Assembly: GCA_016212295.1 (NCBI GenBank)
Contig: JACRGO010000073.1
Span: 1-57,760, forward strand
Length of the DNA stretch: 57,760 bases
DNA from: Nitrospinota bacterium
Lineage (GTDB): Bacteria > Nitrospinota > Nitrospinia > JACRGO01
Reading direction: 5' to 3'
Part shown: in pieces, positions 26,583 through 57,626 of the stretch
Layout of the letters: every line of letters begins with the position of its first letter
Numbering within the stretch: the stretch's first letter is position 1
Notes under the pieces: generated by a model
The model's database searches: none
Seen by the model: the letters and a program-made list of their open reading frames with translations, nothing else
Told to the model about the DNA's origin: nothing
Position numbers and translations under genes: made by a program

Positions 26583-26588
26583 ATAAAT

Positions 26589-26897: not shown

Positions 26898-26981
26898 GCA
26901 ACACTGGCCGCTAGGTCATGGCGCGCCAGTTGCCGGGGAAGTTTGCCATTGGCTCCTCGTCACTGGCCACTGAATATATTG

Positions 26982-28378: not shown

Positions 28379-28389
28379 TGCTTGTCATT

Positions 28390-36204: not shown

Positions 36205-36230
36205 GGATGCCTGCGCCTTTTTAAAGAATT

Positions 36231-37681: not shown

Positions 37682-37791
37682 GTAAATTTTAAAAATTAAA
37701 ATTACTTTTCCTTGGAAATCCGTGTCATCAGCGTTATCCTCTGCCGGTTGCATAGCCCAGACGGGACTATGGAGCCGGCAAGGATTTTTTT

Positions 37792-40700
37792 TCATATTCT
37801 GACTTCTGGCTTCTGGCCTTCGATACCCGGCGCCTGCCCCCTGTCTTCATTTATACCCCGCGCGCGCCAGATATAAAAAATGGCTGGATACACAGCGAGT
37901 TCCATTATAGTGGAAGTGACGACGCCGCCGACCATCGGCGTTGCGATGCGCTTCATCACGTCAGCCCCGGCCCCGCTGCTCCATAGAATGGGAAGCAGGC
38001 CCGCGATGATCACCGCCGCGGTCATGGCCTTTGGACGCACCCTCTTCACCGCGCCGTGGTAAATGGCGTCACGCAGGTCCGCCGGACCCCGCATCTTGCC
38101 CTTGCTGCTCCATTCCCCGTAAGCCAGGTCCAGATAGAGGAGCATCACCACGCCCGTTTCCGCGTCCAGGCCGGCCAGGGCTATCAGCCCCACCCAAACC
38201 GCCACGCTAAGGTTGTAGCCTGACAGGTACAGCATCCAGAAGGCGCCGACGAGCGAAAACGGCACAGCCAGGAGCACTATGGCGGTCTTCACCATTGACC
38301 GGGTGTTTAGATAGATGATCAGCACGATGATCATAAGCGTGAGCGGGACCACGATCAGGAGCCTCTGCTTGGCCCGGACCATGTACTCGTACTGCCCGGA
38401 CCAGAAGATGTTGTATCCAGCGGGCATGCGGATGGTCCCCTTGTCCAGGGCCTCCTTCACAACGGCCTGGGCCGACTCCACATACCGCCCGACGTCGATG
38501 TCCTTCACGTCCACGTAAATCCAGGCGTTGGGAACAGCGTCCTCGCTCTTTATTCCCATCGGGGCGCGGACCACTTCCACGCTCGCCAGTTGTCCAAGCG
38601 GAATGTGCGCCCCCACGGGAGTGGGAACGATGATTTCCCTCAACGACTCCAGGTCCTTGCGGAAATCGCGGTCATAGCGAAGGTTCACGGTGTAACGCTG
38701 AAGCCCCTCCACCGTGGTGGTGAGGGGCATGCCGCCAAGGGCCACTTCCAGCACCTCCTGGACCTCTCCAACGGTGAGGCCGTACCGCGCGATCTCGTCG
38801 CGGTTGATTGTGAACTCAACGTAATTTCCCCCCATCACGCGCTCCGCGAAGACGCTTGCCGTGCCCTGGACTTTTCGCATCACAGGCTCAATCTCGGAGG
38901 CGATCCGCTCAAGCTCCGCCAAGTCCGGCCCGGCCACCTTGATCCCGACCGGGGTTTTGATACCGGTCGCCAGCATGTCGATGCGCGTCTTGATGGGCAT
39001 GGTCCAGGCGTTGTTCAGTCCGGGGATTTGAACAGCGGCGTTCATGGCCTCCACCAGCTCGTCCGGGGTCCGGCGGCGGTGGGCCTTCACCTTTCCGCGT
39101 TCGTCCAAAATGTCCGCCTCCGGCCATTCGCTTTCGTCCTTTAGCATGATGGTGGTTTCGACCATGTCAAAGGGGGCCGGGTCGGTTGCGGTTTCAGCGC
39201 GGCCTATCTTGCCGAACACGTGGTGGACCTCCGGGAAGGTTTTTATTATCTTGTCAGTCTGCTGAAGGACCTCCCGCGCCTTTGTAGGGGAGATGCCTGG
39301 AAAGGTAGTCGGCATGTACAGGAGGTCTCCTTCATAAAGCGGCGGCATGAATTCGGAGCCGAGGTTTTGGAAGGGGAAGGTTTTCCCCGCGCCAAGGGAG
39401 ATTGTCTTCAACCATCCTTCCGGGAGCCGGTTGGCAATCAGCCGATTCCAGGGGAAGAAGACCCACGCCACCAGGATGGCGGCTCCAAAAATCACCGCGA
39501 CGCGGCGGCGTATGGCCCAGTCGATCACCGGATGATAGGCCCATATCAGGAACCGGTTTACCGGGCTCTTCTCCTCCGGGACCATCTTTCCCCTGATAAA
39601 ATATCCCATGAGGATAGGGGCCAGGGTCACGGAGAGTAGGGCCGCCGCGCCCATTGAGTAAGTCTTGGTAAAGGCAAGGGGCTTGAAGAGGCGTCCCTCC
39701 TGGGCCTGAAGGGTAAAGACTGGAATAAATGAAACGGTTATGACAAGCAGCGAATAAAAAAGGGTCGGCCCCACCTCGATGGAGGCGTCCCTGATGATCT
39801 CCCAATGCGGCTTCCTGCCGCCGTCGCGCTCAATGTGCTTGTGGGCGTTCTCTATCATGATGATGACGGCGTCCACCATTGCCCCTATGGCTATGGCTAT
39901 GCCGCCCAGGGACATGATGTTGGAGCTAAGCCCCTGGCCGTACATGATGAGAAAGGAGATGAGGACCGCTATGGGGAGGATGAGAATGGCCACGAGCGCG
40001 CTCCTGAAATGAAGCAGGAAGAGGAGGCAGACCAGCGCCACCACAAGGCTTTCCTCAATCAGCTTTTCCTCAAGGGTCTTCACGGCGCGATTGATGAGCG
40101 CGCTACGGTCATAGGCGATCTGGTAATGAACGTCGGGCGGGAGCGACTTCATGGCCTGGTCCAGACGTTTTTTAACGTCCTGGATCACCTGGCGGGCGTT
40201 TGCCCCGTACCGCACAACCACTATCCCTCCAACGGTCTCCCCTTCCCCGTTCCATTCAGCTATGCCCCGGCGCATGTCGGGTCCAAGCTGCACGGTCGCA
40301 GCCTGGTCCAGGAGGACCGGGACGCCGTTTGCGCCCACGGCCACCGCGATTTTTTTCAGGTCGCCCAGTCCCTTGATATAACCCCGCACACGCAGCACGA
40401 ACTCCTTTTCCGCCATTTCCATGGCGCGGCCCCCGACCTCTCCATTGCTCCTCTTGATCGCCATGGCGATCTCGGAGATGGAAAGACCGTATGCGCGGAG
40501 CTTGGTGGGGTCCACCGTGATCTGGTACTGCTTCACGAATCCGCCGATGGAGGCCACCTCCGACACGCCTTCAACCGAGGTGATCTGATATTTGAGATAC
40601 CAGTCCTGCATGGAGCGCAGCTCGGCCAGGTCGCGTTCCTTGGATTGAATGGAGTACATGAAGGCCCAGCCAACGCCCGTTGCGTCAGGACCTAGTGAGG

Positions 40701-41079
40701 GCGTGACGTTCTTGGGCAGGCTTGCGGCCAGTCCGCTTAGGTATTCGAGGACCCGGCTCCTGGCCCAATAGGGATCGGTCCCGTCCTCGAAGATCACGTA
40801 CACAAAGGAAAAACCGTAGAAGGAATAGCCGCGCACCACCTTGGCATAGGGGACGGATAGCATCTTGGTTGTGATGGGATAGGTTACCTGGTCCTGGACG
40901 ATTTGCGGGGCCTGGCCCGGCCATTCGGTGTAGACGATCACCTGGGTGTCGGAGAGGTCAGGTATGGCGTCAAGGGGGATGTTTTTGAGGGCGTATAAGC
41001 CGCCGAGCACGAGGACCGCCGTGGCCGTGAGCACGATGAATTTATTTTTCAGGGAAAAATCGATTATGGATTGGAGCAT
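37792..41079 (-). CDS. cusA: CusA/SilA heavy-metal efflux RND permease
   Basis: DAIPDLSDTQVI, YWARSRVLEYL, GSEFMPPL.EGDLLYMP, RIDMLATGIKTPVG, RVRPKAMT. Confidence 0.96.
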   Translation of the reverse strand: MLQSIIDFSLKNKFIVLTATAVLVLGGLYALKNIPLDAIPDLSDTQVIVYTEWPGQAPQIVQDQVTYPITTKMLSVPYAKVVRGYSFYGFSFVYVIFEDGTDPYWARSRVLEYLSGLAASLPKNVTPSLGPDATGVGWAFMYSIQSKERDLAELRSMQDWYLKYQITSVEGVSEVASIGGFVKQYQITVDPTKLRAYGLSISEIAMAIKRSNGEVGGRAMEMAEKEFVLRVRGYIKGLGDLKKIAVAVGANGVPVLLDQAATVQLGPDMRRGIAEWNGEGETVGGIVVVRYGANARQVIQDVKKRLDQAMKSLPPDVHYQIAYDRSALINRAVKTLEEKLIEESLVVALVCLLFLLHFRSALVAILILPIAVLISFLIMYGQGLSSNIMSLGGIAIAIGAMVDAVIIMIENAHKHIERDGGRKPHWEIIRDASIEVGPTLFYSLLVITVSFIPVFTLQAQEGRLFKPLAFTKTYSMGAAALLSVTLAPILMGYFIRGKMVPEEKSPVNRFLIWAYHPVIDWAIRRRVAVIFGAAILVAWVFFPWNRLIANRLPEGWLKTISLGAGKTFPFQNLGSEFMPPLYEGDLLYMPTTFPGISPTKAREVLQQTDKIIKTFPEVHHVFGKIGRAETATDPAPFDMVETTIMLKDESEWPEADILDERGKVKAHRRRTPDELVEAMNAAVQIPGLNNAWTMPIKTRIDMLATGIKTPVGIKVAGPDLAELERIASEIEPVMRKVQGTASVFAERVMGGNYVEFTINRDEIARYGLTVGEVQEVLEVALGGMPLTTTVEGLQRYTVNLRYDRDFRKDLESLREIIVPTPVGAHIPLGQLASVEVVRAPMGIKSEDAVPNAWIYVDVKDIDVGRYVESAQAVVKEALDKGTIRMPAGYNIFWSGQYEYMVRAKQRLLIVVPLTLMIIVLIIYLNTRSMVKTAIVLLAVPFSLVGAFWMLYLSGYNLSVAVWVGLIALAGLDAETGVVMLLYLDLAYGEWSSKGKMRGPADLRDAIYHGAVKRVRPKAMTAAVIIAGLLPILWSSGAGADVMKRIATPMVGGVVTSTIMELAVYPAIFYIWRARGINEDRGQAPGIEGQKPEVRI

Positions 41080-41107
41080 GTTTTTTCTCCATGAGACGGG
41101 TATTTAA

Positions 41108-41206
41108 AAATAGAACGCGGATAACGCTGATGGCACGGATTATCGCGGATAAAGTTTCTTTTAATCCGTGAAAATCAGAACAATCCGTGTCATCCGTGTT
41201 CTATTT
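41108..41206. repeat. Repeat family E, full palindrome upstream of cusA
   Basis: aaatagaacgcggataacgctgatggcacggatt ... aatccgtgtcatccgtgttctattt. Confidence 0.85.
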
Positions 41207-41220
41207 AAAAAAACTAATTT

Positions 41221-41258
41221 ATTTGATTGTTAAAGGTAAAAAATGTAAATTCCTATGC
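41221..41258 (+). mobile_element. Family D, isolated oriIS-like end
   Basis: atttgattgttaaaggtaaaaaatgtaaattcctatgc matches 36357-36394. Confidence 0.6.
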
Positions 41259-41632
41259 TATTGAATTTTTTTTGCAATCTGAAACACTGAAATCGTATTG
41301 ACGAATAGAAACAGCCCGTCGAATATTAAATTTTCCGCGCCCTTTAAGCCTGACAAGGCGAGTAAATATATCATTACATAAATAACAGCGCCACCCGCGA
41401 TAAGGCCGAATATGTATCCAAGATAATGTCCACGAAACAAAAGAACGGACGCGGCAAAATATACCGGTATGAAAAAGAGATCAGGGTATATGAGGGAATT
41501 GTACGCCTCCTGGGGAAAGGCTTCCGGTCTCTTCCAGCTTCCCGCGATAACTGAAAACACCGCGTAAGCCTGAAAAGCCCCCCAGGCAAAAAACCAAATT
41601 ATCGCTGTCCACGGTTTTTTCATTTTCATCAA
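41258..41632 (-). CDS. Four-TM hypothetical membrane protein
   Basis: 124-aa ORF with four hydrophobic segments; its 3' part is duplicated at 42328-42661. Confidence 0.7.
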   Translation of the reverse strand: MMKMKKPWTAIIWFFAWGAFQAYAVFSVIAGSWKRPEAFPQEAYNSLIYPDLFFIPVYFAASVLLFRGHYLGYIFGLIAGGAVIYVMIYLLALSGLKGAENLIFDGLFLFVNTISVFQIAKKIQ

Positions 41633-41714
41633 TGCCTACTATGAGGCTCGATCTTTACCCACTCCTCCGGGTGGCGTTATCGTCCAGCCATTCGGAATGT
41701 TTGCGTTGCCATGG

Positions 41715-42239
41715 TCATTTTTCTTCCTTGCAACCTTTAAACCCTATTTTGGGGCGAAGGGGTGCGGATGGGGTCATCAATTGCCTTATTGCGTCGAACA
41801 CAACCTTGAATTGGGCGTCGTATTTCTTCTCCATGACTTCCAACTTTTTTGCCAAGTCTTTGTGGGCCGCAAGCATTTGCCGCAACCGCACGAAGGTCCG
41901 CATGATCTCTATATTCACCTTGACGGCCCTTTCACTATTGAGCACAGTGGAGAGCATGGCCACGCCCTGCTCGGTGAAAACATACGGGAGATAGCGGCGC
42001 CCTCCACGGCCTCCTTTTTTTGACATTCCAATTTGGAATCTCAAAGAATCAGTTTCCTCTTTGGTGAGCTGAAACATGAAGTCTTGAGGGAAGCGTCCAA
42101 CATTTCTTTTCACCGCCTTATTGAGATTGAAAGTCTCTACTTCATAAAGTTCCGCTAAATCACTGTCCAGCATGACTTTCTCACCACGGATCAGAAAGAT
42201 TTTCTTTTCGATGATTTCAACCGGTATCAAAGCTTCCAT
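41715..42239 (-). CDS. ORF6N domain DNA-binding protein
   Basis: [50 protein letters not shown]. Confidence 0.93.
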
Positions 42240-42298
42240 TTACCCTCCAAATCAAAGCCAATATTGGAAAGCTGTTTTTCAATCTCCTCGTTCAATCG
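42227..42298 (-). pseudogene. Fragment resembling the C-terminus of a Type I R-M HsdM
   Basis: Hand translation [23 protein letters not shown], overlapping the ORF6N start. Confidence 0.5.
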
Positions 42299-42327
42299 AA
42301 TTTACAGCAGCATGGATGCGGGATTAA

Positions 42328-42661
42328 TGAATTCTTTTGACAATCTGAAGCACTGAAATCGTGTTGACGATTAGAAAAAGCCCGTCGAATATTAAATTTG
42401 TAGTATAGGAATTTCCATTTTTTTAGCTTATGAATCAACGAGATGCTAAATGCATAAGAGGAAAAAACTGAACATCCAACATCGAACGTCCAACATCGAA
42501 GTAAGAAAAATTCGTTTTACGTTTTAAATCCTTTCTTCCTTTTTCGACGTTCGACGTTCAATGTTGGATGTTCGATGTTCAATTCTTTAAAGCCCGCCCG
42601 AATGGCGTTAATTTATCCGCGCCCTTTAAGCCTGACAGGGCGAGTAAATATATCATTACAT
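42328..42661 (-). pseudogene. Diverged duplicate of the 3' ~115 bp of the 41258-41632 gene, split by a family D insertion
   Basis: 42328-42399 joined to 42616-42661 aligns with 41262-41379. Confidence 0.85.
42400..42615 (-). mobile_element. Family D element, copy 3, with AACATCG/CGATGTT heptamer palindrome cargo
   Basis: Minus strand taaattaaCGCCAttcGGGCGggctttaaagaattgaacatc ... ggaaattcctatactac; sits between AAATTT and TCCGCG of the duplicated fragment. Confidence 0.85.
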
Positions 42662-42706
42662 GGCGCACTCCAAGAAACAGCAAGTGCGGCCATGTGGAAC
42701 GCGCTG

Positions 42707-45394
42707 TTATCTTTTCACTTTGTGTCCGGTAAAGCTACCCATCAATTCCCGAAATGACGCGGGCTTGTATTTGTTAAAGTTCTCCTCATCCACATAGACA
42801 AAATCATATTTTGCTTCCACTTGCGCATGATTGATGTCTTCGCACCATTGCCGCAGCCGTTCCATCTTTAGAGGCACGTCCGGATCTTCCCGCCCCTTGG
42901 TCTCGACTATGAAAATTTCCTTGTCTGACGCCTTGACAAAAAAATCCGGATAATAGTTGGAAATATCACCGCCTGAATTCACATAATCCAGCTTAAAGTG
43001 AACCGCGAGATAGTTCTTGGCAAAGGAGACCACATCATCGCACCGTTCAAGGAACTGGGCGAACAATAGCTCAAAATGACTGTCTCCGATAATCCTGTTG
43101 AACACGCTTTTTTTAGGCATCAGATACCCTTGGTCCTTTGCCACAAACGGGCGCGTATGCCTCAACTTGATAGTGTCCCGAATCGCGGCATCGCCCTTGT
43201 CCCGCACAGTGAGCGCATTAATCGCCTTTTTTAACGTCTCAATCAACGTTTTGGTTGCGGCTAATTCAGAGAGGTTACGGAGGGTGTTAGGGTCTTCAAG
43301 GTCAACCTGCCGGTCGAACAACTGATTTTGCACGAAATCCTTGACCTTTCCGTAGAGTACATCGTAACCGCTGACCAACCGCAAGTCTTTCATGATGGCC
43401 CCCGCGAAATAGCCGATGACGCTTCGATAGTCAGCAACGCCCGCCGTATCCAGTATTGTCGTATGAGTGATTTCTCCGTTGGTAATATCCTTGAAGACAA
43501 TCTCACGCTGCTCCTCTTCGCTGAACTGCCGGAAGGCCACTCCGCCGCTCCCGAAAGCTTCCACGTCCAGATCGGAAAGATTTTTATATTCCCGGTAAAC
43601 GCGAGGCGTCATTATTGGAATTTGTATATCGAGGGCCTCAATGTCCTTCTTTTCGTTCTCGCTGTCGATCTCCACGACCAAAGGCGCCTTGGGCTTGGTC
43701 CCTTCTCCCATGGGTTTGCGCTCCAGCACGACGCCCTCGGCTTGAATGGATTCCACGAACTCCATGAAGGCGTCGGTTCCAACAACGCTGACATATTCCT
43801 CTAAGCCGCCGGGATACATCTTGCGCAAACCCCGTCCAAGAGTCTGTTCAGGCAGTATATTGCTCGGAGCCTTATAAGCGCGCAGGCCGACAATTGTGGT
43901 CACATTGCGCACATCCCAACCTTCCTTGAGCATGAGCACGGATACGATGGCTTTGAATGGACTCTCCATATCGTCAATCTCGTTGGCCTGCTTGCGCAGC
44001 CAATCCAGTTCTTCCTTGTTCTTACCCGTGACCGATTCGGAGATTTCCCCGTTGTTCTTGGTATGAATCACCAGCACGGAGCCTTGTAAATCCGGGTAGT
44101 TACTCTCCAGATATTCGGCCACGTCATCGCAGTTCCGGGTGTCATCGGTCATGACGAACAGTATGGCCTTTTTGCCCAGCTTCTCATGTTCCGCATAGGC
44201 CGCGCGCCACTCCACCACCCCCAGGTGAATATAATCGGCGTATTTCTCGGTATACTTGGCGCTCTGGCGCTCAACCAGCTTGGCCCGGCTTGGAGCGTCC
44301 GGCAAAACCGGATGCTTTACCACGTTCTGCTTAATGGCTTCCACAAGCGGGTAATCCGCCACGGTCTGAACAAAAATGGCTCCGCTGTTGTGCTTGGGTG
44401 TGGCGGTCACATCCACCTGTATGGACAGGGCATCGCCTTTTTGCGTCAGACGATTATGGATATCCTCAATGGACTTGAACCATGCCAGTTTCCTGTCGTG
44501 GATGTGGTGCGCCTCGTCGTTCAACACAGCCAACTCGTCAATGTCCCTCACAATCATCCCCAGGTCCACCTTGGAGTTGGTGGTCGCGCCGGCGGGACGC
44601 TTCCCCAGGAAGTAATCCATCGTGTCTTCGTCATCGGGCGAAGGCGGGATATCGTCACCGGCATAGATCCTGTGGATATTGGTCAGGAAAATATTGCCGG
44701 TGGGCCGGGTGATGCGCACATTGTCCTGCACGTGCAGGGTAAGTTGAAAATCATCACGCCAGTTGCGCCCGTCCACGCCGTTATCCGGCAGTACCGGGTC
44801 AGCAAAAAATATACGCAGTCCGGCGAAGTCCTTGTAGATGCGGTCCAGCACGATGATATTGGGCGCGATTACCAAAAAGTTACGCGCCAATTCCGAGTCC
44901 GGCTCATAAAGTTTGTGAAAATAGCTCCAGGCCAAAATAAGGCTCATCACCTTGGTCTTGCCGGTGCCTGTGGCCATTTTGACCACAAAGCGCCGCCAAG
45001 TCTCGTCAAACATGCCTGTGGAGACCGTACCTGAACCGTCGAAGCGCATCATGTCGTACTTGTCCTTCACTCCTGCCGCGTCATAAAGATAGATGATGGT
45101 TTCCACCGCCTCCCGCTGGGCAAAGTAATACTGGAACTCTACCATAGTCCAATCGGCCTGGGGCAGTAGATGCGGGGTGTTGAACCACCAGTTGAGAAGG
45201 GCCCGGCTTGTATCCGCGGCCTTGGCGTAACCGCTGTCCCGCCATGTCTTTACTTGCTTGCGCAGTTCGGGCACCAGCGGGGGCATCAGCTTTTCAAAGC
45301 TGGTTTCCCGTAACGCTTCATCCGCGGGAAACCAACGGATATCGGGGTTGAGAATTTCATGAGGCGATTCAGGAAATTTGGGATGGAGGGCCAT
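42707..45394 (-). CDS. Type III restriction enzyme Res subunit
   Basis: MATGTGKT, NDEAHH, TATP, LKEGWDV, EQTLGRGLR, YYPDF...IVETKG (PD-(D/E)xK). Confidence 0.92.
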   Translation of the reverse strand: MALHPKFPESPHEILNPDIRWFPADEALRETSFEKLMPPLVPELRKQVKTWRDSGYAKAADTSRALLNWWFNTPHLLPQADWTMVEFQYYFAQREAVETIIYLYDAAGVKDKYDMMRFDGSGTVSTGMFDETWRRFVVKMATGTGKTKVMSLILAWSYFHKLYEPDSELARNFLVIAPNIIVLDRIYKDFAGLRIFFADPVLPDNGVDGRNWRDDFQLTLHVQDNVRITRPTGNIFLTNIHRIYAGDDIPPSPDDEDTMDYFLGKRPAGATTNSKVDLGMIVRDIDELAVLNDEAHHIHDRKLAWFKSIEDIHNRLTQKGDALSIQVDVTATPKHNSGAIFVQTVADYPLVEAIKQNVVKHPVLPDAPSRAKLVERQSAKYTEKYADYIHLGVVEWRAAYAEHEKLGKKAILFVMTDDTRNCDDVAEYLESNYPDLQGSVLVIHTKNNGEISESVTGKNKEELDWLRKQANEIDDMESPFKAIVSVLMLKEGWDVRNVTTIVGLRAYKAPSNILPEQTLGRGLRKMYPGGLEEYVSVVGTDAFMEFVESIQAEGVVLERKPMGEGTKPKAPLVVEIDSENEKKDIEALDIQIPIMTPRVYREYKNLSDLDVEAFGSGGVAFRQFSEEEQREIVFKDITNGEITHTTILDTAGVADYRSVIGYFAGAIMKDLRLVSGYDVLYGKVKDFVQNQLFDRQVDLEDPNTLRNLSELAATKTLIETLKKAINALTVRDKGDAAIRDTIKLRHTRPFVAKDQGYLMPKKSVFNRIIGDSHFELLFAQFLERCDDVVSFAKNYLAVHFKLDYVNSGGDISNYYPDFFVKASDKEIFIVETKGREDPDVPLKMERLRQWCEDINHAQVEAKYDFVYVDEENFNKYKPASFRELMGSFTGHKVKR

Positions 45395-45404
45395 TGGCTT
45401 TTTT

Positions 45405-45605
45405 TTAGAATGTCCAGTTTTCTTTCTTTACCCATTGTGACAAGCGGTCGCCATAGCCCCCAATCTCGTTATAGACTTCGCGGACCGAGATGATGGTGCC
45501 ATCATTTACCAAACGATCAAACTTTTCCCATAATGAAGGAAAACGTTCCGGGTAAAAGTTGTTGAATAAATCAATCAAGGCACCGCTGTCAAAAACATAC
45601 CTCAT
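45405..45605 (-). pseudogene. Truncated DUF4411 (PIN-like) protein, 66 aa
   Basis: YVFDSGALI...YP..FPSLWE...ISVREVYNEI; stops well short of a full PIN fold; ATGA-coupled to the IrrE gene. Confidence 0.7.
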
Positions 45606-46774
45606 ACGGCAACTCCCTTACGGAACAGCATTGCTTCCATGCCAGGCACGCTCTTTACTTTCACTCCAAGATAATCCGCTAGTTGTTCCGTTGAAATTCG
45701 CTTCTGATAATACCGGCTGAAAGCCATCTCTAAATATGGTTCCCCAAGATAGGCGCCGGTGTTCCGGTAATAATCTCCGCCTGTGCGCGATTTTTTGCTG
45801 GCTATCGCTCGTTCCCATTCCCGGACTTTGTCTTCGTAATATTTCTGATTAACCATGCTTCGGTCAACCATTTTTCTAAGAATGGCTTCTCTGCTGACAT
45901 GATAGCAATCGGCAAGTTTCTGGATTGATGCGTCATCTATCCTCATACCTTTTGTTCTCCGGGCAAAATCGCGCGAGGGAACAAGGAATTCCCCGGCAAA
46001 ACGATTGCAAAGAATTTCTATCCGGCGATTGTCTCCATGCAGGTAGTTAAGATAGTCTTCTATGCGCGTATCCACGCCGCCGGTCCGGAACAACAAATGC
46101 GCCAATTCATGAAAAAGCGTGAAAATCTGCCGGCTTTTTGACTTGCTGTTGTTTACATAAATTACAGGGAATTGTTCGTCATACAAACAAATTCCTGAGA
46201 AATCGTCCGCCTTGAAAACGGCCTTAAAGACAAAAACTCCGTGCTCTTCCAAAGCATGGCGCCAGGATTTAAGCGCCTCTTCGCTGTCCTTCCATTTAGT
46301 TTGCATGGCAATATCTATTTGCAAATATTCACGAACAACCGTTGCCATCTTCTCGGCTGACACATCCGGAGCAAAAGACAGGTCCCGCGCAATTTGCCGC
46401 TCCGCGGGGTTGATATTGTCATACAGTTCGGCGAGATTCAGTTGCCGAACCTTCGCTTCCCGGATCAAGAAATGTATCCGTGGCGGCATCAAATCGATTT
46501 CATATTCCGGCAAGGTGCGGAAAGTTTGTTCAGGTGTCTCCTCCGAAGGCGGATCGGGAAAAAAGAACAAGGCCAGGGGACGCCTATAAATCCTGTAAGC
46601 CAGAGTTTCCAACTGGGGATATGTAGGAGCGCTCTCGCCCCGTTCCCAGGCGGCGATTGTTTCAGCGGTAATACTTTTTCTATCGAGTTTAAGGACCACT
46701 TCCTCAACGGAAAAACCCGCTGTTTGGCGTGCCCATTGTAAAATCGCCGGATTTACTGGAATTGGCTGTGTCAT
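45602..46774 (-). CDS. XRE HTH + ImmA/IrrE metallopeptidase
   Basis: NPAILQWAR...WERGESAPT HTH; FTLFHELAH (HExxH); E..CNRFAGEFLVP. Confidence 0.92.
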   Translation of the reverse strand: MTQPIPVNPAILQWARQTAGFSVEEVVLKLDRKSITAETIAAWERGESAPTYPQLETLAYRIYRRPLALFFFPDPPSEETPEQTFRTLPEYEIDLMPPRIHFLIREAKVRQLNLAELYDNINPAERQIARDLSFAPDVSAEKMATVVREYLQIDIAMQTKWKDSEEALKSWRHALEEHGVFVFKAVFKADDFSGICLYDEQFPVIYVNNSKSKSRQIFTLFHELAHLLFRTGGVDTRIEDYLNYLHGDNRRIEILCNRFAGEFLVPSRDFARRTKGMRIDDASIQKLADCYHVSREAILRKMVDRSMVNQKYYEDKVREWERAIASKKSRTGGDYYRNTGAYLGEPYLEMAFSRYYQKRISTEQLADYLGVKVKSVPGMEAMLFRKGVAV

Positions 46775-49044: not shown

Positions 49045-49133
49045 AAAAGTTCTCTTCGGCCTTTCTACTTACGTTGTTTCACTCTTTACTCATGTCCGTC
49101 ATAATCCAATCGGGGCGTTAACCGTGTTTTATT

Positions 49134-50921: not shown

Positions 50922-50936
50922 ACGGGACCTCCAAAA

Positions 50937-51344
50937 TTATTTTGGGGCGTTGGATTTTATACTCTTTATAATGGAGTCCAGGCTCGCGACCTTTAGTCTG
51001 AACCCACCGAAATCCATCTCATAGGCTTCGGCTCTGAGGGAGGCAAAGGACTTTATCCCATGCACATCCGGCATGAACTCGAGTTGAATTCCGGAATTGT
51101 CGTTCACTACACGGTATAGTCCGGATAAAGGATAGTATGGCTTTAGAATATAAGCGTCGAGTTCCCGCGCCAGAACCTTGAGCTTTCGCAAATTCAATGG
51201 GGTCTTCCGGAACATAAAGCCAAAGTCCATTGTGGTGACCGGCGCCCCCTGTAAAGCGGCCGCCGCGTTGCCGATGAGCACCGTTTCAAGTCTGGCCTTT
51301 GTCAATGCTCCTGCTATTTTTTCTAATAAAGGTTCCGCGTTCAT
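50937..51344 (-). pseudogene. Nucleotidyltransferase-like protein, probably degenerate
   Basis: LIGNAAAALQGAPVTTMDFG (DxD reads DxG); ends right after ASLDSIIKS. Confidence 0.55.
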
Positions 51345-51379
51345 TTGGCCTTTCCCTCGTTTTCTGTCATAAAAAAATC

Positions 51380-51626
51380 GTAACCGTTCACGGTTTCAGG
51401 TTCAGGGTTCCAGGTTTTAGAAAACCCTGTATCCACGCTTATCTCCAAAACCCGCTTACCTATATGGATTTTCATTGAGCGCTGCTAAAAACAGGTTAAC
51501 CAACAGGTTCAATGTGGAGCGCCCTAAAAAAACCTTGTTGGGGCGAATAATCATTCGCCCTTACATTGCCGTGTTTGACGATCTTTCAACCCTGAACCCT
51601 GAACCTTAGACCCCGTGAACGGTTAC
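51380..51626. mobile_element. MITE family B, copy 4, no TSD, with an internal REP-like hairpin
   Basis: Perfect TIRs GTAACCGTTCAC / GTGAACGGTTAC; interior matches 6366-6555 plus inserts including gttggggcgaataatcattcgccctta (about 51537-51563). Confidence 0.88.
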
Positions 51627-51664
51627 ACCACCAGGACACAGAGAAAAATTGCGATCTTTGCGCC

Positions 51665-52669
51665 TCATTTCTTGTATCCAACTTGTTCCTCAAAAAGCGT
51701 TAATTGGCCAGCGCCCTCATGTTGGATTCGATATCCTCCTGTGTTTTCATTGGGAAGAGTTGCAGTGCTATCCGCAAAAACAGAAAGCGCCTCTCTCATA
51801 TTTGCCCTGCCTGTGGCTCGACTTTTGTGAAGCGGCCTTGCGCCTTGCTTAAGCAACTCCTGATTGCCTGTCGCGGTTTCCGGCATTCCTTCATAGACAG
51901 GCGCAAAAAGGGGAACTCCCATTTTCAAGGATTCACGGCCTGCCTCTATGCTTCCGCCCGTTGTTCTTGCCTCAATAAGAATCATCACATTTGACAATGC
52001 GCATATTGTTTTGTTGCGCTGCATGGCATTCCTTACGCTCCAGGGGATTCCCGGCAGGAATTCACTTACAACCGCGATTCTCCGCCAATCCCAAATATCC
52101 TTGAATTCCCGTTTAATATGGAATTTCAGTATCCCCTCGCAGAGGACAAGGGTGGTCGTTCCTACGCTTTCAAGCGCGGCGCGATGTGCCGCCATATCAA
52201 CGCCTGCCGCGTAACCGGAAATTATGTTTATCTCCCGCCGCGCAAGTTGTTCAGCGCAATCATAAGCCGTATCCAAACCCTTTTCCGATGCCTTGCGGGA
52301 ACCGCAAAATCCAGTGGAAGGCTTATTGAGCAAACCGGAGTTCCCAAGAACCATTAATAAAGGCGGCGCTTTTTTCCCAAACAGGGTCTTTAACCTTTGC
52401 GGATATTCATCATCAGTAACGGATATAACCTTGACGCCAATATCATTGAGCCGGTCCCAAAGTTCATCGACCTTGTTCTTATTCGCGGAATACTCCGATA
52501 CCTGCTTTTCATTAAGTATTCCTCTTAATAACCGTGGGTCACTGAAAAAATTGCCGGCAGATTTGCTTTTTTCCGTCAGGCGTTCGAGAATTGACATTGC
52601 CTTTGCAACCCCTACTCCTGGCGTTTCAAGAAGATGCAGCAGATGGTATGAAATATTGTCAGCAATCAT
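51665..52669 (-). CDS. DprA/Smf-like protein (ShosA-like)
   Basis: YPQRL...APPLLMVLGN, GFCGSRKAS, ISGYAAGVDMAAHRAAL, VSEF, AMQRNKTI, GGS; likely start 52669 overlaps the PRTase stop. Confidence 0.88.
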   Translation of the reverse strand: MIADNISYHLLHLLETPGVGVAKAMSILERLTEKSKSAGNFFSDPRLLRGILNEKQVSEYSANKNKVDELWDRLNDIGVKVISVTDDEYPQRLKTLFGKKAPPLLMVLGNSGLLNKPSTGFCGSRKASEKGLDTAYDCAEQLARREINIISGYAAGVDMAAHRAALESVGTTTLVLCEGILKFHIKREFKDIWDWRRIAVVSEFLPGIPWSVRNAMQRNKTICALSNVMILIEARTTGGSIEAGRESLKMGVPLFAPVYEGMPETATGNQELLKQGARPLHKSRATGRANMREALSVFADSTATLPNENTGGYRIQHEGAGQLTLFEEQVGYKK

Positions 52670-53567
52670 TTTGAACCCGTGGAATGTTGTCGTCATTCCT
52701 GCATGTCTTTTCACAGGCCAGTCCGAAAACTTTTTCAGCGCCGGCCTCAAGCATCCGCATAGCGACGTAATTTGTTGAAACACCTGATTGATAAAGGTCT
52801 TCTATAAGAAGGACCGTCTGGCCTTTGAGGGCTTCCGGATCAACCATAATAGTTCCTTCAATGGTTGGTAGCTTATTCTCAAGCTTCATATCCTTAAGAC
52901 CGGCCCTTGCCCTAATTGTACTTACATCATGGCTCAAATTCGGCATACCACGTTATTCCGCTATTTTTGCAGCCAGATAGCTCGGCAAATCATAGGCTTT
53001 GTCCGGGCTCGATGAGGGCATTGCGACCACGCAAGTAGCTGAACTATAGCAGGTCATTTCTTCGAGAAATGCGCGACAGAGGGAACTAATGTCATTCGCT
53101 GCCGCATAAGTGTCCTCTGTTGGATTGCCGCTGTAAGGTTTTGCCCGTGTCCTGAGCATTCCTATCTCAGTCTGTGGTTTGGCTGGATTCCCGTCTTCTC
53201 TGTCATAATCCAGTGCAAAAGAAAGGGCAAGACAATCTCTATTAGCGATATATTGACCGATAAGCTTCAACCAGTCTTGTACCTTCTCAAGCATATCAGG
53301 ATTCGTTTCTACATTTTTAAGAAAAGTATATCCTCTACCGTCCTTACTTTTTCTAATGCCAATATGAGGAACATCGCACATGGATTCAAATGCATTGCCA
53401 AGAGTTTCCGTGAAAGGGAGAACCAGGGACCAATCATCCGAAGACGCCGGTTCATGTAATGACTCAGGCCATTCTACCGACAACTTCATCCTACGCGGCC
53501 GCCATGTAATCATTTCCTGTACTCTGGCTTTAGTTATGGCTTCCTGCCGGGGTTTTGCTATCGGCAT
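52659..53567 (-). pseudogene. ComF-like phosphoribosyltransferase (ShosT-like) split by an in-frame TAA at 52953-52955
   Basis: VVAMPSS...LAAKIAE*RGMPNL...VLLIEDLYQSGVS (PRPP loop); the two track ORFs are in one frame. Confidence 0.82.
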
Positions 53568-53798
53568 ATTCTTCCCTCTGCACTATATGAAATCAATTTT
53601 CGATATTACAGTCATCAAGCCTTTCTGATATATTCATTCCTGAAAGAGACTCTCGAAAAAACTCCCCAAAAGAGGTCGCAGTCTGACACTCCTCCAGGGT
53701 GCAATCTTTATCACACGCTTCCCGTACTTTAGGCTCTAAAATTCCCAAAAAATGTGGGTAAAGATTAGCTCTCAAGAGGGGAATTATTAGTGTATGCT

Positions 53799-55364
53799 CT
53801 ATTTTGGACCTGTTAATAATTGCGTCCCAACCGTCCTTTCCAGATCGGCCATGGCCTGGTTCTGGTCTCTTACGTGCTCCCAATAATGAAGATTATATTC
53901 CAGCCAGATTTCCTGGGCGTCAAGGACATTCAGGAAATCGCCTTTCCCTGCCTGGTAGTCGGCCTTGGCCGCCTCCAAGCTGTTCCAGGCCAGGGGCAGC
54001 AAGGACTTTTGATACAGGGCGGCGTTCCTTTTCGCGGTGTCAAGACGGAACGTGAGGTCCTTCAACTCGAAACGAAGCTTGTCCTTTTGGGCCTCCAGTT
54101 CTTTTTGCATGGATTGATACATCTGCCGCGCCTCCCTCACGTAAGCGTCATTCATGCCGAACCAGAAGGGCGTCTCTGTTTCAGGCTTCATGGCCTTTAA
54201 CTCGGGCTTTTCGTCCATTTCAACCATTTCCACCTTCCTGCCCTCAATGTAGTTGTATCCCAGTGTGAAATCAGGAAAGAATTCCTTTTCCGCCATTGTG
54301 ATGGCTATGTTGGATTTTTCTATTTCCAATCGCAGGACCCTGAGCTCCTGCCGTCTCTTCAAACCAAGATCCGTCATATCCTGGAGCGATAGTGGCGTGT
54401 CATGCAATTCCGCCTCCTTCCTTGGACCCAATGCGGTTTGGGGAGGCAGGTTCAGGAATTTATTCAATCTGGCGGCCACGGTATCCCTGGATGCCCTCCA
54501 GGTAACCAGGTCGGTTTCCAGCTTGGCGGTCCTTGTCTGGACCTTCAACACATCGCTGTATCCCACGAGGCCGGAGTCGTATTTAATGTAAGCGATCTTT
54601 TCCAGTTGCTTGAGGAGTTGTAAATTTTCTTCCGCTGTCCTGATGGCGTGCCCGGAATAAAGGAGTTCATAATAGGCGTTCTTAATGTCGGCTATAAGGT
54701 CCCTCAAGGCGACAAAATAATTCTCGCTGGCGATCTCCACCTCCTTTGCCGCCATGTCCCCTTTCAAGGCAACGACGCCGGGGAAGGGGAATTTTTTTTG
54801 AATCGATTCCATGCCGCCGGACATGGACCCTTGGGCCATGCCGGTTTCATTTATGAATGCCTGGTATTGGCCGAGGAGATTATCCAGACGGGTGGCCTGC
54901 GAATATTCCTCCAGGGACGCTTCCATCTGTTTTTTGGCGCCAGCCAGTCCAGGGTTTCTTTCAAAGGCCGCGGCGATCAGGATATCCAGGTCGATTTGCC
55001 CCTTTAGGAGATCAAGTATCTGGTCCGTTTTGGCCGCTTCCCGTATCTTTTTAGCCGGAGGACTTTTGAAGTCGAAAAACTCTTGCTCACCCGCGCCGCT
55101 TGCTATGGAGTCCTCCCATCCTTTTTTTTCCGCGTTCAGTTTTTCCTCAAGGAGCTTTAGCTCAGGGGCCGCCTGCTCCTGCAGGGCCGCGCCGCTTTTG
55201 GCCGCCTCTTCCGGCGACCCGGCCACGTTCTGTTCGTAATAGTCAGGGGCCTTGTAGGACTCGAACTCCTTCCGCATGCCGCCATAATCCGCGCCTTGCG
55301 CAACGATAATGGGGAAAAACGCAAGAGCGGACATCACGGTTATTAATCTTCTATGAATTTTCAT
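53799..55364 (-). CDS. TolC family outer-membrane efflux protein (2)
   Basis: Signal peptide, AFERNPGL, QKKFPFPG, FPDFTLG, YQAGKGDFLNVLDAQ, LERTVG. Confidence 0.92.
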   Translation of the reverse strand: MKIHRRLITVMSALAFFPIIVAQGADYGGMRKEFESYKAPDYYEQNVAGSPEEAAKSGAALQEQAAPELKLLEEKLNAEKKGWEDSIASGAGEQEFFDFKSPPAKKIREAAKTDQILDLLKGQIDLDILIAAAFERNPGLAGAKKQMEASLEEYSQATRLDNLLGQYQAFINETGMAQGSMSGGMESIQKKFPFPGVVALKGDMAAKEVEIASENYFVALRDLIADIKNAYYELLYSGHAIRTAEENLQLLKQLEKIAYIKYDSGLVGYSDVLKVQTRTAKLETDLVTWRASRDTVAARLNKFLNLPPQTALGPRKEAELHDTPLSLQDMTDLGLKRRQELRVLRLEIEKSNIAITMAEKEFFPDFTLGYNYIEGRKVEMVEMDEKPELKAMKPETETPFWFGMNDAYVREARQMYQSMQKELEAQKDKLRFELKDLTFRLDTAKRNAALYQKSLLPLAWNSLEAAKADYQAGKGDFLNVLDAQEIWLEYNLHYWEHVRDQNQAMADLERTVGTQLLTGPK

Positions 55365-55402
55365 TCTTAATTCAGGCAGTGGCTTTAAAAAAGTTATTAT
55401 TT

Positions 55403-55849
55403 AGCCGCGGATTAACGCGGATTTTCACGGATAAATTCTTATTTTTTTCTGGAATTATCAAAGATAAATCTCTTGAATTCCGGTTTTTTCCCGAAGTTTA
55501 ATAATAGCCCAATTTCAATGGGAGTTGCTTTCAAATAATTTAACAATTGCGCTTCATGCATGGTGTCAATGGAACGAGCTGCTTTTAATTCAATTATTAC
55601 CGAATGGTTGACAATGAGGTCAGCTCTAAAATTTCCTATAATATTCCCGCGAAAAGATACTGAAATTTCTTTTTGGGTTTCCACGTCCAACCCATATTCC
55701 TTTAAAGCAATGCACATAGCCTTCTCATAGATGGATTCAAGAAAGCCATGGCCAAGTTCATTGTAAACTTCATAAAAGCACTTGAGAATTATTTCCGTTG
55801 TTTCCTTTTCTTGAAGTTTATCTGCGTTCATCTGCGTTAATCCGCGGCT
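55403..55849. mobile_element. IR-bounded GxxExxY cassette
   Basis: 33-bp inverted repeats at 55403-55435 and 55817-55849 (27/33; outer 16 bp perfect). Confidence 0.8.
55439..55831 (-). CDS. GxxExxY protein (PD-(D/E)xK nuclease-like)
   Basis: LGHGFLESIYEKA, RADLIV...IIELKA, HEAQLLNYLKAT, GLLLNFG. Confidence 0.93.
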   Translation of the reverse strand: MNADKLQEKETTEIILKCFYEVYNELGHGFLESIYEKAMCIALKEYGLDVETQKEISVSFRGNIIGNFRADLIVNHSVIIELKAARSIDTMHEAQLLNYLKATPIEIGLLLNFGKKPEFKRFIFDNSRKK

Positions 55850-57215
55850 CCTTAATTGAGTCTGCGTCAAGGCTGACGCCAACCAGCTTCTCCATCCGCG
55901 CTATCCCCTGGTGGAAATCCGCCAGGACGCGCTGCTGGGCCAGGTTGAAATTGAGCCACACGCTCTGGGTCTCCAAAAGGCCGGAAAAACTCCCCTTCTT
56001 GTCCTTGTACCAAGCCTCCGCGGTTTCCATTGACTGCGCAGCCTGTGGAATCAGCGAGTCCTTGTAAAGGCGCACCAGCCGGTCCGAGTTCTTCAATTTA
56101 AAATAAGCGGTCTTGATGGCGGAGAAGGTCTCGTTCTCCAGCGCCTTTTTGTCGTGGACCGCCGCCTCTTGCCTCAATTTCGCCTCATCGACCCTGGCCC
56201 GGTTCTTTCCAACCCATATCGGGAGGCTCACTCCGAAATTGAAGGTGTAGGCGTCCTTTGGGCCGCCTCCGCCCATTCCGCCCCCTGCTCCTGTGGTCTC
56301 ATTTCCCATGTCCATGTAATCAAATCCCAACTGGAAGTTAGGGAGATATTCCTTTTTGGCCAAGTCCAGTTCCTTTCCGGCCATTTCGATTTTTACTTCG
56401 GAACCGGCCAATTCCTGCTGATGCGCCTTGGCCAGATCGTAAAGCCGGGCCAACGAGTAATCAAAGGGCCTGAACTCCAATTCTCCCGGCCTTCCCAAGG
56501 GAGATTCCGTGGACCGGTTCAGGATTGAGTTGATCCTGGCGGCCTGCGTTTCCCTTAGCTCCGTGAGGAGGACCAGATCATAGGAAAGCTGCGCGAGTTG
56601 GGACTGGGCCTTGAACACGTCGTTCAGAGTCGTGCCGTCAACTGAATAATCCGTTTCGCCTATCCTAGCCAGATGCTCCGCCAAGTCCTTGTTCTTTCTG
56701 GTGATCTCAATCGCCTTGTCCACGTAACACAGTTCGTAATAAGCGTCTTTCAGCTCCACGATGACGTCGCGTGTTTCTTTCTCGAAATCGATTTGGGCCA
56801 TCCTGGCCTCCTTTTCCACGATGTCGCCCTTGAGAGAAAGCTTGCCGGGAAATGGGATTTCCTGCATGACCCCGAAACTCTGAGTTTCCCTTCCTTCCAT
56901 TTTTTTTATGAAGCGGGTGTACTGGAGCACGGGGTCCTCGTAGGCCGTTACTTGGGGATATTTCTCGATCACCGCCTCCCATCTTTTCTTGGCAGCCTTG
57001 AGCTTAGGATTGTTTTGAAACGCTACGGCGATCAACGTTTTAAGGTCCGCGCTTGAGGACAAATCCGGGGACGCGGAGCCTGTAGCCGCGGTGCTATCCT
57101 CCTTGGGAGCGGCCCAGGCCAAGGTCCCAAAGGACAGGGACAAGGCCGTCAGGAGAATAAGCGGATGAATAATGTACTTAACGCTCCGGCGATTTTTTTC
57201 CACCACGGATTTCAC
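55818..57215 (-). CDS. TolC family outer-membrane efflux protein (1)
   Basis: NNPKL, QEIPFPGKL, YLPNFQLG, VSLPIW, LIPQAAQS, MEKLVG. Confidence 0.92.
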   Translation of the reverse strand: MKSVVEKNRRSVKYIIHPLILLTALSLSFGTLAWAAPKEDSTAATGSASPDLSSSADLKTLIAVAFQNNPKLKAAKKRWEAVIEKYPQVTAYEDPVLQYTRFIKKMEGRETQSFGVMQEIPFPGKLSLKGDIVEKEARMAQIDFEKETRDVIVELKDAYYELCYVDKAIEITRKNKDLAEHLARIGETDYSVDGTTLNDVFKAQSQLAQLSYDLVLLTELRETQAARINSILNRSTESPLGRPGELEFRPFDYSLARLYDLAKAHQQELAGSEVKIEMAGKELDLAKKEYLPNFQLGFDYMDMGNETTGAGGGMGGGGPKDAYTFNFGVSLPIWVGKNRARVDEAKLRQEAAVHDKKALENETFSAIKTAYFKLKNSDRLVRLYKDSLIPQAAQSMETAEAWYKDKKGSFSGLLETQSVWLNFNLAQQRVLADFHQGIARMEKLVGVSLDADSIKEPRINADERR

Positions 57216-57289
57216 GGATCAAAAAATTAAAAGAGAGTAACATTTTATATGATATTCCCATTTTTCCCGGGAACCAATTTTTTTTTGAA

Positions 57290-57315
57290 CGCCGGGACCG
57301 TTGCCGGTCCCGGCG
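57290..57315. other. GC-rich hairpin between the hypothetical gene and TolC
   Basis: cgccgggacc-gttgcc-ggtcccggcg; followed by an A tract, not a T tract, on the coding strand. Confidence 0.55.
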
Positions 57316-57350
57316 CACTCGAACCTTTTTATCACGATCCGCGGGGCAAA

Positions 57351-57626
57351 TCAATGTTTGTGCCCCTGATGGCCGCCGCTTTCGCTTTCCGGATCAATCA
57401 GCTTGCCTCCCTTAAAGCCCTTTCCCGCCGCGCTTTTCCCGAGGCGGGTGATCTTTTGGACCTTAATGGTCTTGTCCTTTACCTTCCCCTCAATCCGGAC
57501 CGGGTAGGTAAATTGTTCACGAAGTTGTTTCTGGTCCACTCCCTGAAGCTCGTAAACCGATTTTCCGTCTTCAGTGATGAAGACGATATGCTCCTCCTTG
57601 CTGTCTATATGCTCAGGGAATAACAT
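57351..57626 (-). CDS. Hypothetical beta-rich protein with His-rich tail; 5' end uncertain
   Basis: FITEDGKSVYEL...VRIEGKV...IKVQKI...GGHQGHKH; frame is open to the window edge. Confidence 0.55.
   Translation of the reverse strand: MLFPEHIDSKEEHIVFITEDGKSVYELQGVDQKQLREQFTYPVRIEGKVKDKTIKVQKITRLGKSAAGKGFKGGKLIDPESESGGHQGHKH

Follow-up and report, generated by a model that had tools for sequence, protein, structure and literature searches.

Defence and selfish genes at every junction of a metal efflux operon in a Nitrospinota bacterium: probable passive accretion in a putatively remodelled locus

The contig JACRGO010000073.1 of the Nitrospinota assembly GCA_016212295.1 carries a metal efflux operon with two tandem genes for outer-membrane efflux proteins (OMP1 and OMP2), a cusB-type gene for a membrane fusion protein (MFP) and a cusA gene for a pump of the resistance-nodulation-division (RND) type. 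Defence and selfish genes occupy each of the three junctions between these host genes. The window analysed here is the whole contig (57,760 nt; C15), which belongs to a genome bin of 237 contigs and 3.74 Mb, referred to below as the own genome (G000). With moderate confidence, we interpret the locus as an operon that was remodelled by horizontal transfer, tolerates insertions, and has accumulated them passively in several steps, with no dedicated cassette-capture machinery.

Every sizeable open reading frame (ORF) from 57215 down to 37792 was located on the minus strand. Along this strand, OMP1 was followed by a GxxExxY gene, OMP2, a phosphoribosyltransferase (PRTase) gene with a DprA-like gene, a miniature inverted-repeat transposable element (MITE), a small nucleotidyltransferase (NTase) gene, and cusB; after cusB came mod, an IrrE gene, a DUF4411 stub, res, a gene fragment with a MITE, an ORF6N gene, a 124-aa ORF, and cusA (Table 1). 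The original prediction, made from the sequence letters, had described this gene order, the strand, and the identities, and the ORF list together with profile searches in Pfam, NCBIfam, and PADLOC agreed with it almost item by item. Its estimate of about 11 kb of inserts was borne out by gaps of 453, 2,877, and 8,054 nt (11,384 nt over the three junctions), with which the locus departs from the contiguity of heavy-metal efflux (HME) RND operons. The host genes had been called intact; all four were open and aligned end to end with those of relatives, the 14-residue tail of OMP1 being encoded by the neighboring element. As had also been claimed, a Pfam scan of 42 window ORFs revealed no family of integrases or transposases, and neither a tRNA gene nor an Rfam family was detected in the whole window. 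Two entries needed correction: the listed fragments derive from the 3' end of another copy of the 124-aa ORF, and orf284 (46771-47625) is the C-terminal part of mod in the same frame, cut off by one TGA. The PADLOC matches comprised PsyrA/ShosA with ShosT/PsyrT, MTase_III with REase_III, an IrrE of the RmrA/capP type, and PDC-S05, and they place at least two defence systems together inside the efflux operon.

Table 1. Features of the efflux operon and of its inserts, in minus-strand order, and one further MITE of the contig.
Feature	Coordinates	Strand	Matches and remarks
OMP1, outer-membrane efflux protein, 465 aa	55818-57215	-	PF02321 1.3e-42, two stretches
GxxExxY element (OMP1-OMP2 junction)	55396-55856	-	TIGR04256 8e-40; 40-nt inverted arms
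OMP2, second outer-membrane efflux protein, 521 aa	53799-55364	-	PF02321 1.2e-35, two stretches
ShosT/PsyrT-like phosphoribosyltransferase toxin gene, 301 codons	52662-53567	-	in-frame TAA at codon 205 (52953-52955)
DprA-like antitoxin, Shosha/PsyrTA type	51665-52783 as listed	-	PF02481 3.5e-41; PsyrA 5.7e-55; ShosA 1.1e-37
MITE A, about 254 nt	51380-51633	.	9 copies; terminal inverted repeats of tandem GGTTCAG-type units
Lone small nucleotidyltransferase, 135 aa, ending 15 nt ahead of cusB	50937-51344	-	atlas lead only
cusB-type membrane fusion protein, 595 aa	49134-50921	-	HlyD_D23 (PF16576) 3.1e-78; three HMBD stretches
Type III mod, 757 codons	46771-49044	-	in-frame TGA at codon 460 (47665-47667); MTase_III 1.2e-97, read-through 2.5e-110
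Helix-turn-helix plus ImmA/IrrE metallopeptidase, 390 aa, intact	45602-46774	-	PF06114 5.6e-21, HTH_3; PADLOC RmrA, capP
DUF4411 (PIN-like) stub, 66 aa	45405-45605	-	PF14367 1.1e-13, profile positions 1-62 of 159
Type III res, 895 aa, open	42707-45394	-	ResIII 1.1e-14; REase_III 2.8e-19
3' fragment of second copy of 124-aa ORF, split by MITE C	42325-42661	-	direct repeats and an inverted repeat
MITE C, 211 nt, inside the 124-aa ORF fragment	42401-42611	.	26 copies
ORF6N-domain protein, 174 aa, PADLOC candidate PDC-S05	41715-42239	-	PF10543 2.3e-34; PDC-S05 7.7e-60
124-aa ORF, earlier called membrane protein	41258-41632	-	only full copy in the genome
MITE D, gene-less hairpin	41106-41212	.	21 copies; arms of CACGGAT/ATCCGCG units like the GxxExxY arms
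cusA, CusA/CzcA-family RND pump, 1095 aa, intact	37792-41079	-	TIGR00914 1121.7 bits, cut-off 701.45
MITE B	36230-36394	.	37 copies

The host genes of the operon have two origins. For comparison, 80 cusBA loci, mostly titled Verrucomicrobiota, were fetched, of which 70 held both cusB and cusA; the same genus was represented by one genome (G001), and class-level kin by 20 genomes for SecA and 13 loci for the operon. OMP1 was 67-68% identical to the first OMP of both operons of G001 and OMP2 53-55% identical to the second, while the two OMPs shared 34% identity with each other. The small ORF upstream of OMP1 was also native, and the M23-SecA synteny was common to the window and G001. cusB was 57-71% identical to homologs in the 80 fetched loci vs 29-31% to the MFPs of G001. 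Identity of cusA was 72-85% in the 72 of the 80 loci that held it, 54-62% to class kin, and 38-41% to G001, a pattern that is the reverse of that of SecA (78% to G001, 62-69% over the full length to the 20 class-level kin, and about 50% to four Verrucomicrobiota genomes). On the FastTree phylogeny of 66 sequences, where supports are Shimodaira-Hasegawa-like values only, cusA nested in a clade of 52 sequences, mostly titled Verrucomicrobiota, under several branches with support of at least 95. Thus, the OMP pair and the flanking M23-SecA genes are native, and cusBA is xenologous, drawn from a mainly Verrucomicrobiota gene pool. The own genome contained no closer homolog of the MFP or RND of G001 than cusBA itself, and the simplest reading would be that a foreign cusBA displaced the native MFP-RND pair behind the native tandem OMP genes. 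Composition was rejected as proof of foreign origin, as the GC content at third codon positions (GC3) of cusBA (0.70-0.77) falls within the native range (SecA, 0.78; OMPs, 0.65-0.69); therefore, the transfer claim rests on the identities and the tree. As to function, the adaptor passed the cut-offs of PF16576 (3.1e-78) and TIGR01730 (133 bits) but scored 224.7 vs a cut-off of 390 with the CusB model NF007303. The best solved relative of cusA was E. coli CusA (1117 bits; ZneA, 488), three Met positions of which aligned with Met in the window protein; we take these to be the Cu(I)/Ag(I) triad M573/M623/M672.

Two repeats were seen near cusA. The 45 nt over its stop codon (37751-37795) recurred with 91-96% identity on about ten other contigs, and arm-like pieces at 37706-37739 (solo, after cusA) and 41119-41152 formed an inverted pair around the gene.

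Comparison with related operons indicated that the filled junctions are a derived state. The genome of the same genus had two OMP1-OMP2-MFP(-RND) loci, with the RND gene in one of them; both were compact, with gaps of 37, 52, and 37 nt and of 0 and 216 nt, and free of cargo. In the class kin, matches to OMP, cusB, and cusA lay close together in 12 of the 13 fetched loci, as judged on the spacing of these matches; about 1.2 kb separated cusB from cusA in L107. Among the 70 operons, the cusB stop and the cusA start were at most 21 nt apart in 57 cases, 46-81 nt in four, 170-196 nt in two, and 260-663 nt in seven. The gap of the window thus exceeded by far the maximum in these relatives (8,054 nt vs 663 nt). 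An apparent class of cusB-cusA gaps of about 240 nt was an artefact of longer cusB C-termini and disappeared once the stops were located.

ORFs of both strands were scanned in the seven occupied cusB-cusA junctions. An ORF6N gene 57% identical to that of the window was found in L037, a full IVP gene in L088, and IVP fragments in L026 and L047, all of them in sense; a ParE-like toxin gene in L034 (11830-12084, minus strand) and a HicA toxin gene in L084 (11917-12144, minus strand) were antisense, and L071 held one ORF without identity. The junction has therefore been hit in other lineages, with a gap of at least 260 nt in 7 of 70 operons, and small selfish genes strike it repeatedly but not always in sense, since two of the seven inserts are antisense. 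The cargo-free operons of G001 and the 7 of 70 distant operons with small inserts make up the scope of this comparison of variable content.

Larger gaps between OMP and cusB in the relatives were considered as further cargo sites and rejected, because they hold small co-oriented HMBD proteins that belong to the system. Such proteins of 125-144 aa with one HMBD motif were seen in L038, L042, L073, L076, and L078; the window has none. By analogy with CusF, they may be periplasmic metal chaperones.

The largest insert, at the cusB-cusA junction, is a type III restriction-modification (RM) unit, with mod and res together and with two further genes between them. It is degraded: the TGA codon in mod stands at a position occupied by Gly in five of five relatives, so that a full-length Mod is not encoded, and DUF4411, 155-160 aa long in five of five relatives, is reduced to a stub after which res starts 10 nt downstream. 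The frames of IrrE and res remain open. When metagenomes were scanned with the IrrE protein as the query, 15 loci were returned, eight of which held copies 60-69% identical to it. The tight order mod-IrrE-DUF4411-res was found in L146, L147, L149, and L150 and, in part, at contig ends in L148, L151, and L157; the window res was 77-80% identical to that of L150 and L146. Neither cusB nor cusA occurred near these loci in up to 10 kb of flank. The IrrE-PIN pair was also present alone on two plasmids, in one case behind a co-oriented ABC-transporter operon and in the other in a recombinase-rich region of a conjugative plasmid. As block and pair are found elsewhere on their own, the locus represents three-level nesting, with the IrrE-PIN pair in the type III RM unit and the RM unit in the efflux operon. 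The conserved gene order shows that the block arrived pre-assembled, and IrrE is the putative antitoxin-like partner of DUF4411.

At the OMP2-cusB junction, a DprA-like antitoxin gene lies beside a gene for a PRTase-type toxin, the arrangement of Shosha/PsyrTA systems, with the toxin gene interrupted. The 204-aa ORF of the latter continues in frame past the TAA, with a stretch resembling the phosphoribosyl pyrophosphate loop after the stop in a three-frame translation. When read through the stop (with X), the protein matched PADLOC PsyrT (5.3e-9) and ShosT (9e-8) across it, whereas it gave no match otherwise; the Pfam family Pribosyltran (0.0019) remained below cut-off. A structure search of a protein atlas also pointed to that fold, as a lead only. 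The letters of the TAA were identical in an independent contig of the sequencing run X1 described below. Together with the PsyrA/ShosA matches, these read-through matches and the TAA identify the pair as a Shosha/PsyrTA-like module with a broken toxin. The antitoxin probably starts at an ATG at 52696 or 52669, overlapping the end of the toxin gene. For the adjacent 135-aa NTase candidate, no match was found in Pfam, NCBIfam, or PADLOC; an atlas feature search placed it with DUF2204/DUF6036/AbiEii-type NTase clusters (0.94-0.96), which is a lead and not a test. An altered genetic code was rejected as the explanation of the two in-frame stops, one being TGA and the other TAA, and the host genes being open under table 11.

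Between res and ORF6N, about 470 nt of non-coding DNA contain roughly the final 129 nt of the second 124-aa ORF copy, abutting the end of res; its pieces at 42608-42661 and 42325-42399 are 94% and 89% identical to 41326-41379 and 41259-41333, respectively, and MITE C lies inside it. The full-length 124-aa ORF had no match in Pfam, NCBIfam, or PADLOC. The insertion point of MITE C showed a short target duplication of the AAAT type, the one MITE for which a duplication was seen. Otherwise, the elements are MITE-like in being short, multi-copy (counting copies of at least 60% of length in the genome), bounded by terminal inverted repeats, and devoid of an ORF. MITE D, for which the RNA fold gave -41.4 kcal/mol (z -6.5), is the only one that resembles a gene-less GxxExxY element.

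The MITEs were tried as oriented vehicles and rejected: between co-directional genes, the sense to antisense ratios were 5:2 for family A, 5:11 for B, 7:3 for C, and 6:5 for D, none of them significant, and copies also lay in convergent and divergent spacers. As far as the MITEs are concerned, the proposal that small elements are candidate vehicles found no support, as these occur genome-wide with no orientation bias and no sign of carrying the larger cargo.

Under the accretion reading, a foreign cusBA would have replaced the native MFP-RND pair by horizontal transfer, and a GxxExxY element would have landed at the OMP1 stop, as its relatives do elsewhere. The defence modules would have arrived by illegitimate or homology-assisted recombination, host-specific MITEs would have landed in and between the inserts, and the toxin and effector parts would have decayed later. 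Insertions may survive because polar effects are tolerable in an operon needed only under some conditions, and because inserts placed between genes leave the reading frames whole. Selection may keep the sense orientation, since small promoter-less elements need read-through and translational coupling, whereas inserts in antisense or head-on orientation would disturb the host unit. Promoters inside the inserts probably now account for at least part of the expression of cusB and cusA. Scans returned 23 promoter-like sites vs 16.8 ± 3.8 in shuffles and 23 terminator-like sites vs 25.9 ± 6.0, and give no evidence either way on co-transcription; MITE C and MITE A form sense-strand terminator-like hairpins inside the inserts, in a terminator scan that as a whole was not enriched over shuffles.

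The original prediction had proposed an integron-like but integrase-free hotspot, that is, a platform at which cassettes are actively captured at gene boundaries, in sense, and expressed from the (possibly metal-induced) promoter of the operon. Part of this stood: the junctions have indeed gained inserts, as a derived state, the cargo is in sense throughout with short spacers, four of the seven occupied cusB-cusA junctions contain small selfish genes in sense, and the start of the GxxExxY gene overlaps the OMP1 stop. The expectation of sense orientation in other operons was likewise upheld for GxxExxY (22 of 28 loci), IVP (11 of 14), and ORF6N (3 of 3), 36 of 45 in total being co-oriented with both neighbors vs a baseline of 51%, but not for the cusB-cusA junction of relatives, where the ParE-like and HicA genes make two of six identifiable inserts antisense. 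No repeat family or recombination site was common to the junctions, in a search that used no attC model and did not look for sites defined by structure only. In addition, the operons of the same genus are empty, the largest insert is a pre-assembled RM block, and MITE A and MITE C carry sense-strand hairpins. Three components of the multi-gene cargo (mod, the PRTase toxin, and DUF4411) are inactivated; the cluster is thus decaying, with no sign of a maintained cassette array. Taken together, we regard the integron-like platform as quite unlikely. Alternatively, the Shosha-like pair, cusA, and everything between them (about 16 kb) could have been imported as one island whose parts were interleaved in the donor before it settled beside the native OMPs; an operon with inserts would then be apparent only. 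This would explain why cusBA looks foreign and the native MFP-RND pair is missing. Contigs of run X2 at similar depth (3.8-8.2) matched cusA, ORF6N, res, the region of the DUF4411 stub, and IrrE at approximately 90-95%, so that another population may contain the same association. Yet cargo of this kind was seen in none of the 70 related operons, the RM block was found in other loci with no cusBA beside it, and the X2 contigs show no linkage. The window ORF6N was also nearer to its paralog in the own genome (64%) than to the ORF6N at the same junction in L037 (57%), and at least three GC3 classes differ from that of cusBA: 0.36 for GxxExxY, 0.42-0.43 for the Shosha-like pair, 0.49-0.52 for IrrE/DUF4411, and 0.65 for mod/res. 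The island is accordingly judged rather unlikely. Coverage holes and odd joints in runs X2 and X3 were attributed to other populations or repeats and were not taken as empty sites; in X3, from another groundwater sample, coverage of IrrE and of the Shosha-like pair fell to zero or close to it, and a low-depth contig (about 4) joined 37815 at the 3' end of cusA to 55816 in the OMP1 stop region, with 12 other letters between.

A chimeric assembly, in which MITE repeats joined unrelated pieces, is suggested by families with 9-37 near-identical copies at three places in the region. Many contigs of the own genome end in these repeats, which probably explains the fragmented assembly, and the bridging contigs listed did not include any that cross MITE A or MITE C. 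Run X1, the best-matching public sequencing run (labelled groundwater metagenome), is probably the source sample, and its Logan contigs are an assembly independent of the GCA_016212295.1 contig. These contigs, with a uniform depth of 9-13 and no mismatches, bridged four other sets of junctions: 40762-41649 (cusA, MITE D, and the 124-aa ORF), 45042-46921 (res, DUF4411 stub, IrrE, and the end of mod), 51576-54008 (the edge of MITE A, DprA, PRTase, and OMP2), and 54108-55451 (OMP2 and GxxExxY). Moreover, the order and orientation of cusB and cusA are as expected, native genes lie at both ends, and the flanks of MITE C are one continued fragment of the 124-aa ORF with a target duplication. MITEs specific to the own genome abut the foreign cusA, which is not expected from a chimera with another organism. 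A chimera is therefore highly improbable.

Several points count against passive accretion nonetheless. The seven occupied junctions and the recurrence of ORF6N in L037 could mean a real site preference and not tolerance. All cargo in the window is in sense, although for about six independent modules and a 73% minus-strand background the chance of this is roughly 0.15; outside the operon, 19 of the 26 other contig genes are also on the minus strand, so that co-orientation alone is weak evidence. cusBA bears no foreign mark by composition, as native core genes span its GC3 values. Nesting and composition are the basis for the order of events, the same genus contributed one genome to the comparison, and the cusB-mod junction, as well as the two MITE crossings mentioned, was not represented among the bridging contigs listed.

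The GxxExxY element at the OMP1-OMP2 junction belongs to a recurrent kind. Its ORF, of the PD-(D/E)XK_3 type, has a probable ATG at 55831 and a stop at 55439 (130 aa). This ATG precedes the stop codon of OMP1 by 11 nt, and the element can use OMP1 expression because its start overlaps that stop. The arms at 55817-55856 and 55396-55435 consist of CGCGGAT/ATCCGCG-type units, and the left arm encodes the last 14 residues and the stop of OMP1. They paired in both the minimum free energy and the centroid RNA folds (z -3.9). All four GxxExxY copies of the own genome were bracketed by inverted arms of two or three tandem units; the units vary by copy (CGCGGAT, CAGGGAT/ACAGGAT, CACGGAA, CACGAA), whereas the paired arms remain complementary.

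A survey of 29 loci in 17 genomes of the class, with 270 mismatched-flank pairs as arm controls, showed an arm-pair score of at least 12.5 in 26 loci, above the 95th percentile of controls in 21 and above the 99th in eight. From arm to arm, the elements spanned 413-603 nt; the median spacer was 16 nt on the side of the upstream stop codon (23 loci) and 17 nt on that of the downstream start codon (21 loci). The co-orientation of GxxExxY with both neighbors compares with a baseline of 50.7% from 2,560 crude gene calls in the own genome, and its nominal p of 0.002 is overstated, as the loci are related. IVP genes, with 18 matches in the genome, had the same style of arms in 13 of 17 cases (score of at least 12); inverted repeats able to pair into a stem around the ORF, as in intervening sequences (IVSs) of rRNA, were thus present in 26 of 29 GxxExxY and 13 of 17 IVP loci. 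All GxxExxY and IVP copies examined lay between protein-coding ORFs and not in 23S rRNA. No inverted repeats were found around the three ORF6N copies of the genome, all of which were co-oriented with both neighbors.

It is possible, though doubtful, that GxxExxY and IVP (four-helix-bundle) genes reside in one class of hairpin-armed, operon-parasitic elements of about 460 nt at co-directional gene junctions. On this reading, the elements may be read through or translationally coupled and, by analogy with rRNA IVSs, excised from the polycistronic transcript at the arm stem; families like MITE D may be their gene-less offspring; and operon junctions may be a real niche for selfish DNA, of which the efflux operon would be the most crowded example. 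Intervening sequences of rRNA with an S23p/IVP ORF have been called selfish elements (PMC4990558). The survey of PD-(D/E)XK families gives the function of PF13366 as ‘Unknown’ in the section seen (PMC3424549). Judged by titles and abstracts, GxxExxY was not the subject of the papers listed among three that contain the name, and these searches found nothing on such hairpin-armed units.

Further copies were observed nearby. On the same contig, a partial IVP gene at 30805-31086 (PF05635 match at 30850-31056, minus strand) shares its orientation with both neighbors, a glycosyltransferase gene and a 304-aa ORF, and is flanked by inverted arms of ATTACGA-type tandem units, the same architecture as that of the GxxExxY element. 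One kin genome had two tandem GxxExxY elements with identical arms (L120/L137, G026:C17:22448-23417), and an element in L116 (G006:C55:1353-1703) lay 78 nt from the 3' end of a convergent SecA gene. Elsewhere on the contig, one MITE copy sits between the SecA and M23 peptidase genes, and further pieces of families B, A, and D were seen at 36230-36394, 6366-6542, 12729-12791, and 9159-9247. The contig also encodes a 900-aa protein made almost entirely of RCC1 repeats (17614-20316, plus strand), next to mreD/PBP2, and a pilMNOPQ cluster at 21532-29469.

Defence islands are mostly reported between core genes or on mobile elements; here, the modules are inside one operon, at every junction. The locus shows how far the spacers of a dispensable operon can fill, with the host genes unbroken and without any recombinase, and it offers an example, dated by nesting, of the arrival, nesting, and decay of defence modules. 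The elements of the widespread GxxExxY and IVP families, which fill tight junctions in sense, may matter more; these findings make their biology testable.

In comparison with CusCFBA and other HME-RND operons, the locus shares a pump of the CusA/CzcA family, an HMBD-bearing adaptor of the CusB type, outer-membrane factors of the OEP family, and a common strand. Unlike them, it has two tandem OMP genes and no cusF, its genes are set 0.45, 2.9, and 8.1 kb apart by unrelated DNA, and its pump and adaptor have another phylogenetic origin than its OMPs. The locus resembles an integron in that its inserted genes share one orientation, are closely spaced and mostly promoter-poor, and follow a host transcription start, but intI and shared attI/attC-like sites are absent, the cassettes are self-contained multi-gene systems, and inserts in relatives can be antisense. 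Families A, C, and D agree with MITEs in their size of 105-255 nt, terminal inverted repeats, lack of an ORF, and 9-26 copies; they differ in arms built of tandem 7-10-nt units, in the style of the GxxExxY/IVP arms, and in having no transposase partner in the window. PrrC, nested in type Ic RM loci, is an accessory gene inside an RM operon. Similarly, IrrE-DUF4411 lies between mod and res in four complete and three partial metagenome loci, whereas the host system here is of type III, the module is a peptidase-PIN pair, and the window copy is degraded.

As far as the part of the source seen describes 23S rRNA IVSs (PMC4990558), the GxxExxY/IVP elements resemble them in being about 410-600 nt long, bounded by inverted repeats able to form a long stem, inside a host transcription unit, and equipped with one small ORF in sense. 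They differ in their location between protein-coding genes, in the PD-(D/E)XK nuclease fold of the GxxExxY ORF, and in the gene-less, multi-copy derivatives found here. Core defence hotspots between conserved genes have been described that are independent of any single mobile-element class (Johnson et al., 2023; PMC10250203). Like the islands and hotspots cDHS1/2 of Pseudomonas aeruginosa in the portion of that work seen, the locus combines several defence and toxin-antitoxin modules between conserved host genes with no mobile marker. Unlike them, its flanking genes form one operon, its cargo is split over three junctions, and the whole is small (11 kb) and largely decayed. The case is a small, decaying defence islet nested in an operon.

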